From contig CAXXFK010000018.1 in the NCBI GenBank assembly GCA_963663965.2, positions 100,421 to 164,420 of the forward strand: a stretch of DNA of 64,000 nt. Reading direction: 5' to 3'. The notes under the pieces are model-generated. The model made no database searches. It saw nothing but the letters and a program-made list of their open reading frames with translations, and had not been told where the DNA came from. Position numbers and translations under genes: made by a program. The stretch comes from Sedimentisphaerales bacterium (GTDB taxonomy: Bacteria > Planctomycetota > Phycisphaerae > Sedimentisphaerales > SM23-30). Positions 7,187 to 15,256 of this stretch are shown in pieces (position 1 is the first letter of the stretch; each line of letters starts with the position of its first letter).

Positions 7187-7594
7187 ATGTCATATTTAGA
7201 ATGGACTGACACGCTTTCTGTGGGTGTGACCAAAATCGATCAGGAACATCAGCAGTTAGTTAAAATTGTCAATACGCTTTATGAAGCGGTAATGGCCCGT
7301 AAAAGTCAGGAAATACTCAAGCCGATCCTTTTTGAAATGGCCAAATATGCAGCCAGCCATTTCTGTACTGAAGAAACCTATATGGATCATTACGGGTATC
7401 CGGCGATGGATGCTCATGTTCAGGAGCATCAGAATTTTGTAAATAAAATTGAGCAGTTTGTTCAGCAATTTGAAGCTGGTAAGCTATTTCTTACTACCGA
7501 AATAATGGATTTTCTAAAGAACTGGCTTATCAATCATATTCAGGGAACAGACAAAAAATACACAGCATTTTTTCATCAAAATGGTTTGCACTAG
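7187..7594 (+). CDS. Bacteriohemerythrin (single domain)
   Basis: W...LSVG..IDQEH, HFCTEE..M, H..EH, WLINHIQGTD. Confidence 0.92.
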   Translation: MSYLEWTDTLSVGVTKIDQEHQQLVKIVNTLYEAVMARKSQEILKPILFEMAKYAASHFCTEETYMDHYGYPAMDAHVQEHQNFVNKIEQFVQQFEAGKLFLTTEIMDFLKNWLINHIQGTDKKYTAFFHQNGLH

Positions 7595-7633
7595 TATAAA
7601 AAATTCACCTAACCCTTGAGAAAGGAGCAAATT

Positions 7634-8047
7634 ATGGCATTTTTTCAATGGACACCTGAGTTATCTGTCGGCATTCAGGATATCGATCTACAGCATAAGA
7701 AACTGGTTGATCTGATCAACCGGCTTTATGATGCGATTAAAAGCCGTCAAGCCGGCCAGATCCTCGAAACGATTCTGGCGGATCTGGTTGATTATACGGT
7801 CACCCACTTTACTTATGAAGAAATGTTTCTGGATAAAAATGGTTATCCAGAATTGGCGGCCCACAAACCCAAGCACAACAATTTTGTCGCAAAGATAAAA
7901 CAGTATATGGAAGATCATAAATCCGGTAAACTGTTTCTCTCGACTGAAATTATGGATTTTCTGAAAGACTGGCTGACCTCTCATATCATGGGGACAGACA
8001 AGGAATATGCCAAGTACTTTAGTGAGAAGGGTTTGGTTGCAGTATAG
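7634..8047 (+). CDS. Bacteriohemerythrin (single domain), tandem paralogue
   Basis: IDLQH, HFTYEE, HKPKH, WLTSHIMGTD; AAGGAG RBS before ATG 7634. Confidence 0.92.
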   Translation: MAFFQWTPELSVGIQDIDLQHKKLVDLINRLYDAIKSRQAGQILETILADLVDYTVTHFTYEEMFLDKNGYPELAAHKPKHNNFVAKIKQYMEDHKSGKLFLSTEIMDFLKDWLTSHIMGTDKEYAKYFSEKGLVAV

Positions 8048-8239
8048 TATCGCGGCTTCGATCCATTCGGTTGTAAAATCAAAGGGAATCCATAGTGATT
8101 CCCTTTTTTAATATTTTTTAAAATTATTGCTGGTATCGGTTGATATCCTGCGTATAAAATTTGTGAGAAACCTTCCTTCAATTTATGTTTACATAACATA
8201 ACTCACTATTTGACAAACCTTTTGATAAGGAGCAGTTTT

Positions 8240-9199
8240 ATGAAAACCCGTATTAGCATTGCGTTAATTATCGTGGTATGCCTGGCAATGACCGGTACTG
8301 AAATATATGGTCAAGGTTGGGGTGGGCCTCAAGGTGGATGGAATCAGCAGCAGGACCAGCAGAATCAGCAGGGTAGCTGGGGTCAGCAGCGGGGCCAGGG
8401 CGGTGGTTGGGGTAACCAGGGTCAGGGCCAGGGTGGCGGTTGGGGTGGGCCTGGCCAGGGACAACAAGGCGGCTGGGGCGGCCCCGGTCAGGGCAATATG
8501 CAACAGCGTGGCGGTTTTGGCCAGCAGGGTGGCGATCGCATGCAGCAGATGCAGGACCGCATGCAGCAGATGAGTGAGGAATTGATGAATTTTCTGAATA
8601 AATATGCTCCCAATGCCGCTCGCGAAGTCAATGCCCTGCGTAATCAGGATAACAACCAGTATATGCAGAAGATGATGGAATACCGCCGCAGTTATGGCCA
8701 GGTATTGTCTTATTCCGATACCAATCCGGAACTCTGTAAGGCTTGTGTCGCCCGAGTTGCCTTGCAGGATCAAGTGGATGCCACGGTGGATTCTCTGAGC
8801 GCCAACGCGAATAACGCGACCGCTTTGCAGCAGTCGCAACGTACCCTGTACAATCAATTGGGTACCCTTTTTGATGCCATCGTCAAGGAGCAGCAGGGAT
8901 TGTTGTTTGAAATGAAAAAAGAGCTGACCGCCAATAATGGCAATAACAACAATCAAATGGCACAACAGGATCAGCAACAACAGCAAGGCCGTGGTAATCG
9001 TGGCAACAATATGATGGGTAATTTTGGTCAACGTGGCGGCTTTGGCGGTTTTGGCCGTGGACCGGTTACTCAGGAACGTTTGCAACAGCGTGAAGCGGAT
9101 ATCAAGAGTTGGGCAACCAATAAAGAAAAACTGGTTAAGCTTCGCTTTGATGAATTGACCATCAATGTGTCCAGATTCCCATGGGATTCCGGCTTCTAA
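8240..9199 (+). CDS. Secreted hypothetical protein with G/Q/N-rich low-complexity regions and a helical core
   Basis: AAGGAG RBS, signal-peptide-like MKTRISIALIIVVCLAM, GGWG repeats, followed by a terminator. Confidence 0.75.
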   Translation: MKTRISIALIIVVCLAMTGTEIYGQGWGGPQGGWNQQQDQQNQQGSWGQQRGQGGGWGNQGQGQGGGWGGPGQGQQGGWGGPGQGNMQQRGGFGQQGGDRMQQMQDRMQQMSEELMNFLNKYAPNAAREVNALRNQDNNQYMQKMMEYRRSYGQVLSYSDTNPELCKACVARVALQDQVDATVDSLSANANNATALQQSQRTLYNQLGTLFDAIVKEQQGLLFEMKKELTANNGNNNNQMAQQDQQQQQGRGNRGNNMMGNFGQRGGFGGFGRGPVTQERLQQREADIKSWATNKEKLVKLRFDELTINVSRFPWDSGF

Positions 9200-9273: not shown

Positions 9274-9479
9274 TCAGAGCCCCTACCTGAATGAGTTTTC
9301 TACTAAGACCGGCTGCACAAGTCGTCCGCAGTGTTCTCGGGACCCAACATCCTCGACAATCCATAGAAGGGTGGCCTGCGGGTGTTTGATCCCTGCGGTT
9401 TGCTTGAGGCGGATCTTCGACCTTGCTGACCACTTTTTCGCCCGGTCTCGCCACAAAAACATTTTGTCAGGCACTCTGA
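9274..9479. mobile_element. MITE-like element family A, copy 1 (left TIR degenerate)
   Basis: Colinear similarity to 18676..18856 (gaccggctgca, gggacccaa.atcctcgacaa, cattttgtcaggc.ctctga). Confidence 0.7.
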
Positions 9480-9497
9480 AAAGCCCGGAAAGACCAA

Positions 9498-9680
9498 GGG
9501 GAACCGCTAAAAATTCATTCTGGGCTGCAAGCAGGCACTCCGCGTGCAGCGAAATAGTGTTTCCCTCAGGGCAGTGTCACAAAAAACCATAAATAGAGTC
9601 ACATGTGCTCGGATCATGGATTCTTTACAGAGAAAAACCATCTTTGCTTTTGCCGCTAAAGCCATTTTTAGAGGTACCCT
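9498..9680. mobile_element. MITE-like element family B, copy 1
   Basis: Imperfect 17-bp TIR ggggaaccgctaaaaat / atttttagaggtaccct (14/17); internal similarity to 11414..11610. Confidence 0.6.
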
Positions 9681-9717
9681 AAAAAAAAGCCCATGGTTGA
9701 TTTAACCACGGGCTTTG
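9681..9717 (-). terminator. Rho-independent terminator of the histone gene
   Basis: A8 run plus gcccatggtt...aaccacgggc stem. Confidence 0.75.
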
Positions 9718-9757
9718 CGGACAATGATATTTTCCTTTCGCGAAAAAATACCAGTCC

Positions 9758-10009
9758 TTAAATATCCTGGGGTTTCAGAGTCGAACGGCGATTGGCCTCA
9801 ACACGCTGAAGGGCCTTGTCCAGAGCGCAATACAGACTGTCAGAGATCGCCTGAATCGCGTCTGAACTGCACATGCAACCTTTGGAGCGAACATAAGCTT
9901 TGACTTTGCTGGCAACTACCAGAACTTCTTTGGGAGAAGCACATTTTTTAGTACCACAAGACTTGGCGGCAGCTTTTTTGGTTGCTTTTTTGGCGGCTTT
10001 CTTTGCCAT
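9758..10009 (-). CDS. Bacterial histone-fold protein (Bd0055-like) with a Lys/Ala-rich N-terminal tail, 83 aa
   Basis: EVLVVASKVKAYVRSKG..SSDAIQAIS..LDKALQRVEANRRSTLKPQDI with the histone RxTxxxxD signature; GGAGGA RBS before ATG 10009; own terminator. Confidence 0.88.
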   Translation of the reverse strand: MAKKAAKKATKKAAAKSCGTKKCASPKEVLVVASKVKAYVRSKGCMCSSDAIQAISDSLYCALDKALQRVEANRRSTLKPQDI

Positions 10010-10534
10010 GTTTGAATCCTCCATGAAAGTAGGAAGTTAATAAGAACAATTAATCCATTAAGGGGAATTTTCTATCTTTCAATCGGCAATTTCAACAAAA
10101 AAACATCGAAAAAACAGAGAAATTGTCTGAAAAGGGCCATTTAGGGGCTTTTTGGGGCAGTTTCAGGATTTTGTAACCATAAAAATGATCTCGAAATACT
10201 AATTTAAGGCGTTTTTATGGTACTTTCAAGGTGTTTACCAAAGCCTGTTAACCATGAACCAGGGCTTTTAATGGGGATTGACGCGTCAATTGGGCTTTCA
10301 AAGACCGGATTGAGATACGAAATTCACAGTATTTTTGTTTGATTCCCAGTGAAAATGACTTTAGGCGGTGGCCTCAAGGCATAAATTAACATTTTTCTGA
10401 TAAAATTACTAAAAAACGCTTGCTGATTTGGACGAAAGAGGTAAAAGATTTATCTAGCAAAGGTGGCACACGTTGTTTTACCGGAGTAATACCATGATGA
10501 GCAGTTATATAAGCTGGAGGGCATGAGGTTGTTT

Positions 10535-10909
10535 ATGAGCTCAGATAACTATGTAACCTTGATTGTAGCAAAGGACCCGGAAGAGGCTGAATACTATCAG
10601 ACACTTCTGGAAGATCATGATATCGACGTCTACGTTGATGAAGATGCTGTCGATGAAGAAGGCGGTATTGCCGTGATGGTGCCAGATGACACCCTGGAAG
10701 ACGCGCAGCATATTCTGGAACAGCGTGACACGATTGATGAGGAACTGGATATGGAATATGATGACGAATTCGAAGATGAAGACGAAGAGGATGAAGATTT
10801 TGACGGTTATGAGGAGATTGATGAGGATGAGGAAGATGACGAATATTACGATGATGAGGAAGAAGAAGAGGATGACTATTATGAGGATGATAGTGACGAA
10901 TATTATTAA
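10535..10909 (+). CDS. Highly acidic protein: small DUF2007-like domain plus a ~50-residue Asp/Glu tail
   Basis: EEAEYYQTLLEDHDI..V..GGIAVMVP..LEDAQHIL then EYDDEFEDEDEEDEDFDGYEEIDEDEEDDEYY...; alternative start at 10523. Confidence 0.75.
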   Translation: MSSDNYVTLIVAKDPEEAEYYQTLLEDHDIDVYVDEDAVDEEGGIAVMVPDDTLEDAQHILEQRDTIDEELDMEYDDEFEDEDEEDEDFDGYEEIDEDEEDDEYYDDEEEEEDDYYEDDSDEYY

Positions 10910-11834: not shown

Positions 11835-12578
11835 ATGAATGGGCAAACGGCCACTGAACAAATTATGAATTCAGACAAGGTTCAGGGAACTCAACTCTGG
11901 ATCGAACAGATTCTCAAAGATTCCATTGGCTCAGGTTTTCAGCTGACGATGCCGGGCTTTATCTTCAATCTCATCCTGGGGGCGATCTTAAGCTATTTCC
12001 TGGGATGGTTGTATATCCGGTTTGGCAAAACGCTTTCGGACCGGCGGACCTTTGCCCGGCAGTTTATTATGCTGACCCTGATCACGATGTTGATCATATC
12101 CATTGTCAAATCGTCCCTGGCGCTTTCGATGGGGCTGGTGGGCGCTTTATCGATTGTTCGATTCCGGGCCGCAATTAAAGAACCCGAGGAACTGATCTAT
12201 TTGTTTTTTGCAATTGGCATCGGTCTGGGATTGGGAGCGGACCTTTGGATGTATACGGTTGTTGCATTTGTTTTTATCGGGTTGATTATTGTTTTGCGCG
12301 GCATGCGACACGAAAAAGACGATCACCAGAATTTACACATCGTCATCCGCAGCCGACTGGATGACGGGATTTCTCTCAAACAGATCGTCGATACCTTGAA
12401 ACCCGCGTGTGAGGGATTGGATCTAAAGCGCTACGATGAGACGGGGACCGGTCTGGAAGCCGTATTTCAAGTGGAGTATAAAGATTTCGCTCAGCTTGAC
12501 CAGAGCCGGGAATCATTGTTAAAACTGGGGCAGGACATTCGGCTGGCTTTTGTTGATCAACAGGGATTATTGCATTAG
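11835..12578 (+). CDS. DUF4956 family membrane protein
   Basis: SSLALSMGLVGALSIVRFRAAIKEPEELIYLFFAIGIGLGLG. Confidence 0.88.
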   Translation: MNGQTATEQIMNSDKVQGTQLWIEQILKDSIGSGFQLTMPGFIFNLILGAILSYFLGWLYIRFGKTLSDRRTFARQFIMLTLITMLIISIVKSSLALSMGLVGALSIVRFRAAIKEPEELIYLFFAIGIGLGLGADLWMYTVVAFVFIGLIIVLRGMRHEKDDHQNLHIVIRSRLDDGISLKQIVDTLKPACEGLDLKRYDETGTGLEAVFQVEYKDFAQLDQSRESLLKLGQDIRLAFVDQQGLLH

Positions 12579-12580
12579 TT

Positions 12581-15256
12581 ATGAAGCTAAAGCGCTCCGA
12601 ACATAAAACGGTTCTGCGTCGCGGATGGTCCTGCTTGCGGAACATCCGCCTGCGATTATTCGTTCTGATAATTGTTGGACTGGGACTACTGGCGGGGTTG
12701 TTCGTTTCGGGGGTATGGGCCGGTTATCGACTGAATCTCTGGTATTCCCGTAAGGGGTTTACCGTCAAAGCCTGGGGGCGCAGCTTATTAGTCCATCAAT
12801 TGGGATGTGTCAAACATTTCTTTCAGGGATTATCCGTTCAGCCGGAACGTATCGATATCGACATCAAGGCCAAAGATATGGCCATCCTGGAAGCGATCCG
12901 TCAGGATGCTCTCAACAAGGGCAATCTGTTTTCCACCCCGGATGACTGGGTCTCGGCCCGGATACGGTATCAGGGCCAGAGTTATGATGCCGCCGTGCGA
13001 CTTAAAGGAGATATGCCGGACCATTGGTATGAAAAAGATGGCTGGTCGTTGAAAATCAAATTGAAAAATGATCAGACCTTGTTTGGTATGCGCCGTTTTT
13101 CCATTCAACAACCCTGGACGCGCTGGTTTCTGGCCGAATGGATAACCCATCGCTGGCTGGCCTATCATGATCTCATCGCGATGCGTTATCAGTTCATTGA
13201 AGTGGGGATTAATGGGAAAAATCAGTCCATCTTTGCCGTCGAAGAAAATTTCGATAAATATTTAATTGAAAACAATTGTTTTCGCGAAGGGCCCATTTTA
13301 AGGTTTAATAACGATTTATCCTGGTCGCTGGGGCCGGATAACCCACTTTATTTCGATAATTTTCTGGATGCTTCGATCGAGCCGGGTTTTCCTGAATCGG
13401 CGCTAAACGATCCCGCCATGAAAGTTATCTGGCAGAAAGCGGCTACGTTACTGGAGCAATTGCGCACGGGACAGCTGGCAGTTGAACAGGTGATTGATGT
13501 CGATAAGATGGCGTTATATTTCGCACTTTTTGAGCTTTTCAAGAGCGACCATATTGTTTCGCTGGATAATATGAGACTTTATTACAATCCCATTACCAGC
13601 CGAATCGAGCCGGTGGGTTATGATTGTGAAGATATCCAGACATTATCCTATGTTGACGGTAATTCAATCAGTGGTTATTATCCGGAGCCGGGACTGTATC
13701 CATCTCCCAATGCCTGGCGTCGCCTTCTGTTTTGTAACCGGGCATTTTATTCGGCCTACCTGCGTGCTCTGGAGCGGATATCCGCCCCGGGTTATCTGGA
13801 AGCCTTTTTCAAAGCAATTGAGAATGATCAGCAAAAAGCCCTGGCGATCCTTTACAAGGGCAATCCATGGTATTTCTATGAAGATGAAAACCTGCTTAAA
13901 ACCAATCGAGATTTTATTCGATCGGTTCTCAAAACCCCGATCGGACCGGTATGCTATTTAAAATCCTGCGATCTGGAGCGACGGCAATTAACCTTTCAGA
14001 TCAGAAACCTTGGGATTTTACCGGTTGTGCTGGACAGTTTTCAGTCAGGTAATATTCAAATCCGCCCCAGTCAGGAGATTCTCCTGTATAGTCACACCCC
14101 CGGTCCGGCAAAGCGATATCATGAGATTACCGTTGCCATTTCACCCGATATTGAGCCGGCCGGGCAGGACTGGACCAATGCTTTGACAGTTAGATGGCAC
14201 AAAATGGGGCTGACAGAAACTCGGGAAACCAAGGTACATAACTGGCCGGCAGTGACGGATGAATTTTCCGGACCGGATGCCTTGAGGGTGGATTCAACCG
14301 TCGAAAAATTTGATTTTATCATTGGCGATAAGGATGGCAACTATCGTATTCAACCCGGGCGCCATACTCTGACTGAACCTTTAATTGTCCCAGTTGGGAG
14401 AAAGCTGATCTGTGGTCCGGGTACGGTTCTGGATTTGACCACCCAGGCCATGTTGATCAGCCGTTCGCCTCTGGAATTTATTGGTTCTGCAGAAGACCCC
14501 ATTGGCTTGATCAGTTCAGATAAAAAGGGAATGGGATTGATCGTCATGGATGCCGGCGGGATCTCTCATCTGGAACAGGTTTATTTTAATGGACTATCCA
14601 ATCCTCAGAATCACGGATGGTCAGTTTCGGCTGCTGTTTCGTTTTATCAATCGGATGTCGATGTCCGGGATTGTGTTTTCCGGGCCAATCGTTGTGAAGA
14701 TTATCTGAATACCATACGATGTCGCTTTTCCCTGGAACGCACTCGTTTTGAACATACGGCCGCCGATGCGTTTGATTCTGATTTCAGTCAAGGATCCATG
14801 AAACAGGTTGGGTTTATTCAGTGTGGCAACGATGCCGTTGATGTATCCGGCACGCAGATCGAAATCGATGATATCGTTATTGAAAAAGCCGGGGACAAAG
14901 GCCTCAGCGCCGGCGAACGCAGTCGTATGTCTGTTCAAAACGCTTATCTCACCGATTGTGAGATTGCCGTGGCATCCAAAGACGATTCCGAGTTAACCAT
15001 AGCCAAGGTTGCCATTCACAAGAGCCGGGTTGGTTTTACGGCGTTTCAGAAAAAATCAGAATATGGTCCGGGCATCATCCGGGCCACCGGGATTTTCTGT
15101 AACGATAGTCTGGAAGCCATCATGCTCGAACAAGGTTCCCTGATCGAAATAGAGGGCCAGAAACAAGCGTGGACCCACGAGAAAATCCGCGATCTGTTCT
15201 ATGGGGAGCTCTATGGACGTAAGAGCGGTATACTTATGCTCGACACCGATCAGTAA
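12581..15256 (+). CDS. CotH kinase family protein with a C-terminal parallel beta-helix
   Basis: N-terminal TM; VRLKGD..H, SLKIKL, VEE, NMRLYYNPITSRIEPVGYD; DAFDSDFS/DAVDVSG/DKGLSAGE repeats. Confidence 0.8.
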   Translation: MKLKRSEHKTVLRRGWSCLRNIRLRLFVLIIVGLGLLAGLFVSGVWAGYRLNLWYSRKGFTVKAWGRSLLVHQLGCVKHFFQGLSVQPERIDIDIKAKDMAILEAIRQDALNKGNLFSTPDDWVSARIRYQGQSYDAAVRLKGDMPDHWYEKDGWSLKIKLKNDQTLFGMRRFSIQQPWTRWFLAEWITHRWLAYHDLIAMRYQFIEVGINGKNQSIFAVEENFDKYLIENNCFREGPILRFNNDLSWSLGPDNPLYFDNFLDASIEPGFPESALNDPAMKVIWQKAATLLEQLRTGQLAVEQVIDVDKMALYFALFELFKSDHIVSLDNMRLYYNPITSRIEPVGYDCEDIQTLSYVDGNSISGYYPEPGLYPSPNAWRRLLFCNRAFYSAYLRALERISAPGYLEAFFKAIENDQQKALAILYKGNPWYFYEDENLLKTNRDFIRSVLKTPIGPVCYLKSCDLERRQLTFQIRNLGILPVVLDSFQSGNIQIRPSQEILLYSHTPGPAKRYHEITVAISPDIEPAGQDWTNALTVRWHKMGLTETRETKVHNWPAVTDEFSGPDALRVDSTVEKFDFIIGDKDGNYRIQPGRHTLTEPLIVPVGRKLICGPGTVLDLTTQAMLISRSPLEFIGSAEDPIGLISSDKKGMGLIVMDAGGISHLEQVYFNGLSNPQNHGWSVSAAVSFYQSDVDVRDCVFRANRCEDYLNTIRCRFSLERTRFEHTAADAFDSDFSQGSMKQVGFIQCGNDAVDVSGTQIEIDDIVIEKAGDKGLSAGERSRMSVQNAYLTDCEIAVASKDDSELTIAKVAIHKSRVGFTAFQKKSEYGPGIIRATGIFCNDSLEAIMLEQGSLIEIEGQKQAWTHEKIRDLFYGELYGRKSGILMLDTDQ

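Follow-up and report, generated by a model that had tools for sequence, protein, structure and literature searches.

What kind of histone is encoded by a small gene of a Sedimentisphaerales bacterium, and what would its basic N-terminal tail be for? The locus lies in a stretch of DNA of 64,000 nucleotides that was analysed as a whole and is called the window below. An earlier note, made from the sequence alone, had read the gene as a histone with a eukaryote-like basic tail, had chosen Bd0055 of Bdellovibrio bacteriovorus (also called HBb) as its point of comparison and had suggested regulation of the tail by acetylation, phosphorylation or thiol chemistry. Our analysis supports the histone and leads to a different view of its kind. 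The gene very probably encodes a face-to-face (FtF) histone of the alpha3 type, which would form a closed tetramer that wraps DNA and would carry its Lys/Ala tail as an electrostatic arm.

The open reading frame runs on the minus strand from an ATG at 10009-10007 to a TAA stop at 9760-9758. Its product of 83 residues ends in RSTLKPQDI, as expected from the earlier description of a fold ending in RSTLKPQD, and the ribosome-binding site and terminator that had been attributed to the gene are both in place (Table 1). The gene is monocistronic, with these two signals as its own. Upstream of it, the promoter scan found 2 consensus sites, which is not above chance (shuffled sequence gave a mean of 1.6), and the weak promoter-like site in Table 1 is a consensus match only. 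A search of positions 9400-10600 against Rfam gave a single sub-threshold row of 20 bits, compared with a gathering score of 175. Three sequencing runs, all of one study, were listed for the DNA; two of them contain the stretch, and none is recorded as RNA.

Table 1. Features of the histone locus and of the divergent operon beside it, in window positions.
Feature	Position	Strand	Basis or detail
Histone gene, 83 codons and TAA stop	9758..10009	minus	Open reading frame; 216 homologues at E<=1e-3
Shine-Dalgarno sequence GGAGG	10018..10022	minus	Plus-strand cctcc; 8 nt before the ATG
Intrinsic terminator hairpin, then T-run	9686..9716	minus	13 pairs, 6 of them G-C; loop of 5
Promoter-like site TTGAAA-17-GAAAAT, weak	10067..10095	minus	Consensus match only
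Codons 1-27, disordered Lys/Ala-rich N-terminal tail, net charge +10	9929..10009	minus	
Codons 28-83, alpha3-truncated histone fold	9761..9928	minus	AF2, Foldseek, alignment
12-nt tandem repeat, 3.1 copies, in the tail-coding part	9968..10005		Unit equals four residues (K-K-A-A type)
DUF2007-domain protein, acidic-tailed	10523..10909	plus	Pfam E 3.9e-7
Arg-rich protein, 142 aa	10986..11414	plus	Second gene of the operon divergent from the histone

An alternative frame of 88 residues (MEDSN-) begins at an upstream ATG at 10024. This start was rejected, because the ATG overlaps the ribosome-binding site and the homologues show that the MAK start is the true one. The overlap of an ATG with the Shine-Dalgarno sequence (ATGGAGGA, window positions 10022-10024) leads gene callers to add a false MEDxx or MENxx prefix, and such a prefix is present in the database entries P0010, P0029, P0087, P0094 and P0105.

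The histone gene occurs once in its own genome, an assembly of 7.24 Mb in 42 contigs that is 94.56% complete with an estimated contamination of 5.43%, and it was found in 40 of 41 related genomes, the sole miss being a genome that is 62% complete. A monocistronic gene that is conserved in single copy within the order fits a housekeeping chromatin protein. The same genome also carries one HU/IHF-family gene.

Residues 28-83 are a bacterial histone fold. The AF2 model, based on an alignment of 115 rows, reached a mean pLDDT of 79.7, with 51 residues at 90 or above and a core above 90, and placed helices at residues 33-42, 49-72 and 80-82, so that alpha2 is 24 residues long. The best Foldseek rows for this model were bacterial and archaeal histones, which bears out the fold claimed in the earlier note. 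HLp of Leptospira perolatii came top (9qt0_A; E 8.8e-6, TM 0.96 by target length, rmsd 0.7 A over 56 columns at 50% identity) and was followed by 9qt1_A, then by HBb at 34-35% and the archaeal histone HTkC at 28% identity, and then by eukaryotic histones and TAFs. The order is the same in phmmer searches against PDB sequences, where HLp (9qt0) led with E 3.9e-16 and 62 bits over query residues 25-82, ahead of HBb/Bd0055 (8cmp at E 1.6e-3, 8fvx at E 1.9e-3) and of the archaeal FtF histone HTkC (9f2c, E 0.26). The Bd0055 sequence given in the note agrees with the aligned PDB chain, and the structural comparison with Bd0055 that it proposed does return a histone fold (TM 0.83-0.87). What did not survive is the choice of Bd0055 as the closest comparison, since HLp is far closer by both sequence and structure.

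Scans of Pfam and NCBIfam with the histone found nothing significant, the best row being BioW at E 0.15; searches of its own genome with PF00808 (CBFD_NFYB_HMF) and PF09123 (DUF1931) gave zero matches, the histone lying below the curated cut-off. In the PDB, the depositors labelled HLp as 'DUF1931 domain-containing' and HBb as 'CBFD_NFYB_HMF domain-containing'. Taken together, these labels and the lack of a match here suggest that the Pfam models do not reach the subfamily, and not that a histone is absent.

FtF histones are defined in the available text of PMC11390915 by a truncated alpha3, cut to 3-4 residues, a shortened alpha2, a dimer-dimer contact made by an R and an N, an RxTxxxxD motif and a predicted tetramer; the reference residues are R41, N45, R47, T49 and D54 of the Haloferax volcanii protein D4GZE0. 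The same text describes bacterial dimer histones without the R and the N and with RKT. In the AF2 model of the window's protein alpha3 consists of residues 80-82 only, and all five FtF residues are present as R69, N73, R75, T77 and D82, in a spacing (R-x3-N-x-R-x-T-x4-D) identical to that of the reference. Across 115 sequences R69, R75 and D82 are invariant, while N73, T77, S34, K35 and K37 are conserved in at least 90%. The marks of an HBb-type dimer are missing: R69 and N73 are there, RST takes the place of RKT, and the sequence is much nearer to HLp than to HBb, which in the alignment has S and D at the positions of R69 and N73 and RKT where the window's protein has RST.

The predicted assembly points the same way. 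Four copies of residues 25-83 were modelled together and scored 0.89, the best of three controls scoring 0.00, against a mark reached by 20 of 30 proteins whose solved structure is a pair of one chain and by 1 of 23 proteins solved as single chains; the four-copy job differs from this calibration in its number of copies and in using its own alignment, and its score is dominated by the dimer interface. The runs agree in at least 96% of contacts, with a partner pLDDT of at least 93, and besides the handshake dimer the model holds a second interface of low expected error at residues 68-69, 72-73, 79 and 81-82. The homotetramer of the FtF definition is thus reproduced here by prediction only, and the pass may stem from the likeness of the protein to the solved tetramers of HLp and HTkC.

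According to the available text of PMC12701072, HLp is a tetramer that wraps about 60 bp of DNA, with DNA contacts at S14, K15, K17, K21, T56, T57 and R59 and a clamp between R55 and D62. In the window's protein these map to S34, K35, K37, R41, S76, T77 and K79 and to R75-D82, using an offset of +20 that is our own and was checked by eight matching residue identities in the alignment. Two DNA-contact positions of HLp in L1 are changed, T27 to C47 and G29 to S49.

Based on this homology and on the models, it seems likely that two monomers pair into a histone handshake dimer and that a pair of these dimers closes into the tetramer, with contacts at the C-terminal end of alpha2 and in the single turn of alpha3 (R69, N73, K79 and Q81-D82). 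By analogy with HLp, the one case in which this has been shown experimentally, the tetramer may wrap roughly 60 bp around itself, with DNA contacts predicted from alpha1 (S34, K35, K37 and R41) and from the L1 and L2 loops (C47, S76, T77 and K79). The four tails of 27 residues, at +10 each, would bring about +40 to the tetramer. To judge from its composition, the tail is most likely a non-specific electrostatic DNA-binding arm that would strengthen binding, offset the charge of the phosphates and assist in condensing or bridging DNA, a role that may be likened to that of the K/A-rich tails of linker histones and of some bacterial nucleoid proteins.

The tail comprises residues 1-27 (MAKKAAKKATKKAAAKSCGTKKCASPK) and has the 10 lysines and the SPK (residues 25-27) ascribed to it before. 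Its lysine content, 10 in 26 residues, has a post hoc binomial P of 6e-8 against the composition of the window's 28 open reading frames of at least 300 aa (Lys 4.3%, Cys 1.1%). AF2 leaves it disordered, with a pLDDT below 50 at residues 5-12 and 14-20 and no ordered structure at residues 18-27. Among the 120 homologues listed, the best of 216 at E<=1e-3, every protein begins with MAK(K/A) and shares an ungapped core of 56 residues, and the tails measure 8-39 residues (median 20), with a net charge of +3 to +20 and a composition of 51% K, 31% A, about 4.5% each of S and T, 2.5% P and 1.2% R. Within the order, tail length spans 5-44 residues. Tails there include near-perfect AKKAP and AKKT repeats (related loci L013-L032).

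Several properties of the tail follow from this comparison. It is translated, because the MAK(K/A) start and an upstream GGAG or GAGG are kept across the homologues; of 75 distinct MAK-start genes from related loci, 72 have one of these two motifs 4-18 nt ahead of the start, a count that leaves out 21 rows with non-MAK N-termini, mostly from spirochaetes, Leptospira and more distant sources. The family can function without a long tail, as relatives from the same order carry tails of only 5 residues. Slippage in the 12-nt repeat would shift tail length in four-residue steps. In composition the tail probably resembles the K/A tails of linker histones more than it does the tails of core histones. 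The description of the tail as eukaryote-like and basic therefore holds in part: it is translated, disordered and basic, but it has no conserved position beyond MAK(K/A) at which modifiable residues could sit, hardly any arginine and a variable length.

These data bear directly on two other readings of the protein. It might be a tailed, dimeric histone of the Bd0055/HBb type, with the tail as a platform regulated by acetylation, phosphorylation (at the SPK) or thiols in the manner of eukaryotic core histones. Relatedness to HBb is real in both sequence and structure, the tail is basic and disordered and carries S, T and C residues besides its one SPK, and acetylation of lysines is a known modification of bacterial nucleoid proteins. 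We nevertheless regard this reading as very unlikely. The much closer match to HLp, the presence of R69 and N73 and the RST in place of RKT argue against a dimer of the Bd0055 type, and the case for a regulatory tail is countered by [ST]P in 2 and Cys in 7 of the 120 listed homologue tails, by the variable tail length and by the related loci, whose conserved neighbours include no kinase, acetyltransferase or deacetylase gene. For a CotH-family gene 2.5 kb from the histone no counterpart was seen in those loci, and only the DUF2007 and Arg-rich genes recur. As neither the SPK nor the tail Cys is conserved, the regulation by modification or thiol chemistry put forward in the earlier note is unsupported.

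It could also be that the tail is not made at all, translation starting at the fold and the K/A codons forming a 5' leader. No supporting point was found for a start downstream, and the candidate was rejected on the conserved MAK start and the GGAG/GAGG upstream of it. The GGAGG sits 8 nt before the ATG at 10009, and in all relatives, whose tails span 5-44 codons, the frame remains open and rich in K/A codons along the whole tail. This reading is almost certainly wrong, and the check for a downstream start, which had been named as a way of overturning the tail, upholds it.

A further possibility concerns the cysteines, which number five as claimed (C18, C23, C45, C47 and C61). At 6% of the 83 residues they exceed the 1.1% of the window's long open reading frames (binomial P 0.002, post hoc). 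A CX4C at the tail base (C18 and C23; window positions 9941-9958) occurs together with C61 on alpha2. Together, the CX4C and C61 near the dimer dyad might bind a metal or form disulfides, the tail being pinned or released according to redox state. A Cys precedes the fold in 14 of 236 distinct family sequences, 3 of which look like miscalled starts; all 11 credible cases have C61, as against 68 of 222 sequences without a tail Cys, and 8 of the 11, which belong to a further clade, combine C57 and C61 with a Cys motif in the tail, six of them having CxC and two a single Cys. A CX4C of its own, at a nearly equal distance from the fold, is present in a second genus of the same family, along with C47 and C61 (L016/L034). 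The four-copy model brings residues 28-32 and 31/36 into contact with residues 59-63 of the partner, so that the tail base emerges near the partner's C61. Set against the redox proposal, anaerobes tolerate cytoplasmic Cys, 63 of the 120 listed close homologues are without any core Cys and 113 without a tail Cys, the 11 tail-Cys sequences represent only some three or four lineages, which leaves the association weak once kinship is counted, C57 and C61 also occur without a tail Cys, and residues 18-27 have no order in the AF2 model. On balance we consider a redox or metal switch unlikely.

The other candidate for a wider role is the operon that diverges from the histone. Its DUF2007 protein has an extreme poly-acidic C-terminal tail, with 63 D+E in 128 aa, and all 13 listed DUF2007 proteins, the window's included, have D/E-rich C-terminal tails (23-63 D+E), mostly with an aromatic end. 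The Arg-rich protein has an invariant core (DRRRGPG..RR...AEEG..DEQF...PFP..TE.LE...GYR) and no match in Pfam, NCBIfam or the PDB sequences; in the Atlas it falls into unnamed Planctomycetota clusters only. Its AF2 model is weak (pLDDT 63), and the VIA wide search with it gave a best Z of 4.1 at an rmsd of 6.5 A over 60 aligned residues (TFIID TAF chains), far below what is meaningful. Its C-terminal helices drew histone-fold proteins as their best rows, among them TAF8/TAF10, a subunit of Pol epsilon and a Medusavirus histone, at Z values of 3.5-4.1 that are not meaningful.

Of 20 loci from related genomes of the order, 13 have the Arg-rich gene beside the histone and 12 have the DUF2007 gene there, in divergent orientation throughout; conservation does not extend to the outer sides. 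Eukaryotic histone chaperones typically have acidic tails. Histone and operon might on these grounds form a module, in which the acidic DUF2007 tail is a putative chaperone or antagonist of the histone tail and the Arg-rich protein a putative nucleic-acid-binding partner. We assign this a low probability. The linkage is broken in 7 of the 20 loci, and in all four such genomes that were checked the DUF2007 and Arg-rich genes lie elsewhere and together, which makes the pair itself the unit. The Arg-rich protein is present in 121 of 301 genomes of the phylum, including 10 of 10 same-class genomes in which this histone was not found, and in all 10 loci from outside the order its gene lacks both neighbours. 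The synteny can be accounted for by kinship within a single order. Among the papers naming DUF2007 that the literature search listed, none concerns histones by its title. The linkage of histone and operon is therefore frequent and not obligate. A functional link between the histone and the Arg-rich protein was rejected as a rule for the phylum, as the adjacency is found only inside the order and the Arg-rich protein is present where this histone was not found.

Tails of at least 29 residues come from loci without the adjacent pair (6 of 6), and tails of 24 or fewer from loci with it (12 of 13), a contrast drawn from few lineages and confounded by kinship. A fuller version of the module can be imagined, though it is speculative and we doubt it: the tailed histone would make up half of a small chromatin system, charge would hold the acidic DUF2007 tail to the K/A tail, on which it would act as a chaperone or antagonist, the Arg-rich protein would belong to the same system, and tail length (5-44 residues, changing in four-residue steps through the 12-nt repeat) and the lineage-specific Cys at the tail base would tune DNA condensation.

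Other genes of the neighbourhood can be listed briefly. Two tandem hemerythrin-domain genes lie at 7187-7594 and 7616-8047 (both on the plus strand; Pfam E 2.9e-14 and 5.8e-16). They are followed at 8210-9199 (plus) by a gene whose 329-aa product begins with a hydrophobic segment and contains long low-complexity stretches rich in Gln, Gly and Asn; it has no Pfam family and is not conserved beside the histone in relatives. On the other side, a DUF4956 membrane protein (11835-12578, plus) precedes the CotH-kinase-family protein of 891 aa (12581-15256, plus; Pfam E 7.8e-8); of these two, only the DUF4956 gene was queried, and it was not found near the histone in related loci.

The source names of the homologues and related contigs point to Sedimentisphaerales, Anaerohalosphaeraceae and Phycisphaerae, and then to Leptospira at 45-49% identity. 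Of 301 genomes sampled across the phylum, only 124 yielded the histone. It cannot, for this reason, be a general explanation of the condensed nucleoids of planctomycetes, to which it had been thought relevant.

Bacterial histones have been recognised only in 2023-2025. To our knowledge only HBb and HLp have been studied biochemically among them and no bacterial histone tail has been tested; our literature search found no experimental test of a planctomycete histone tail. For the tail alone, parallels exist on other folds. Linker histone H1, chlamydial Hc1 and mycobacterial HupB/MDP1 have Lys/Ala-rich, DNA-condensing tails that are disordered, built of low-complexity repeats and contain some P, S and T and hardly any R, but these are attached to a winged helix or to HU and are mostly C-terminal. 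The histone has no Pfam match to the H1, Hc1 or HupB families, and low complexity bars claims of homology.

The closest relative of known structure is HLp (PDB 9QT0, 9QT1 and 9QT2; PMC12701072). The two proteins have in common, over the 56-residue fold, the truncated alpha3, the RD clamp (R75-D82 here), a tetramer, predicted in our case, through the same region and DNA-contact residues that are the same or conservatively replaced. They differ at the N-terminus, where HLp has a short extension whose first six residues are, in the available text, not visible in the crystals and are given no role, and the window's protein its K/A tail of 27 residues and charge +10; they differ also in L1, where C47 and S49 replace T27 and G29, and in the five Cys. 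HBb, the 'bacterial dimer' histone of Bdellovibrio (PDB 8CMP, 8FVX, 9EZZ and 9F0E; PMC10627809, PMC11317129), shares the alpha3-truncated fold, a lysine-bearing alpha1, the R..T..D motif of loop 2 and a similar N-terminal EVLVV(A/T)SKVK stretch. It is more distant in sequence, is without the R and N of the dimer-dimer contact, has RKT, is dimeric and essentially tail-less, and bends or coats DNA. The archaeal FtF histones (HTkC of Thermococcus kodakarensis, 9F2C, and D4GZE0 of Haloferax volcanii) have the same tetramer definition through the end of alpha2 and alpha3 and the same R/N and RxTxxxxD spacing; archaeal FtF histones are generally without tails in the account of PMC11390915 that was available.

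The window's gene is thus an uncharacterised Leptospira-like FtF histone, of a known kind and not a new type of protein. Schwab et al. 2024 (PMC11390915) place FtF histones in Planctomycetota and describe positively charged tails in most bacterial FtF histones, and the window's histone matches this tailed class on both counts. The available part of that paper gives no functional test of the tails and does not mention the order-specific K/A repeat tails, their range of 5-44 aa or the Cys motifs. Since both the family and its occurrence in Planctomycetota have been published, as have its positively charged tails, the gene adds little as a discovery. Its value lies in being a clean, conserved, single-copy example of a tailed FtF histone, in an order whose tail length varies about ninefold between relatives, and this gives a natural tail-length series with which to ask what a basic tail does in a cell without the chromatin machinery of eukaryotes.
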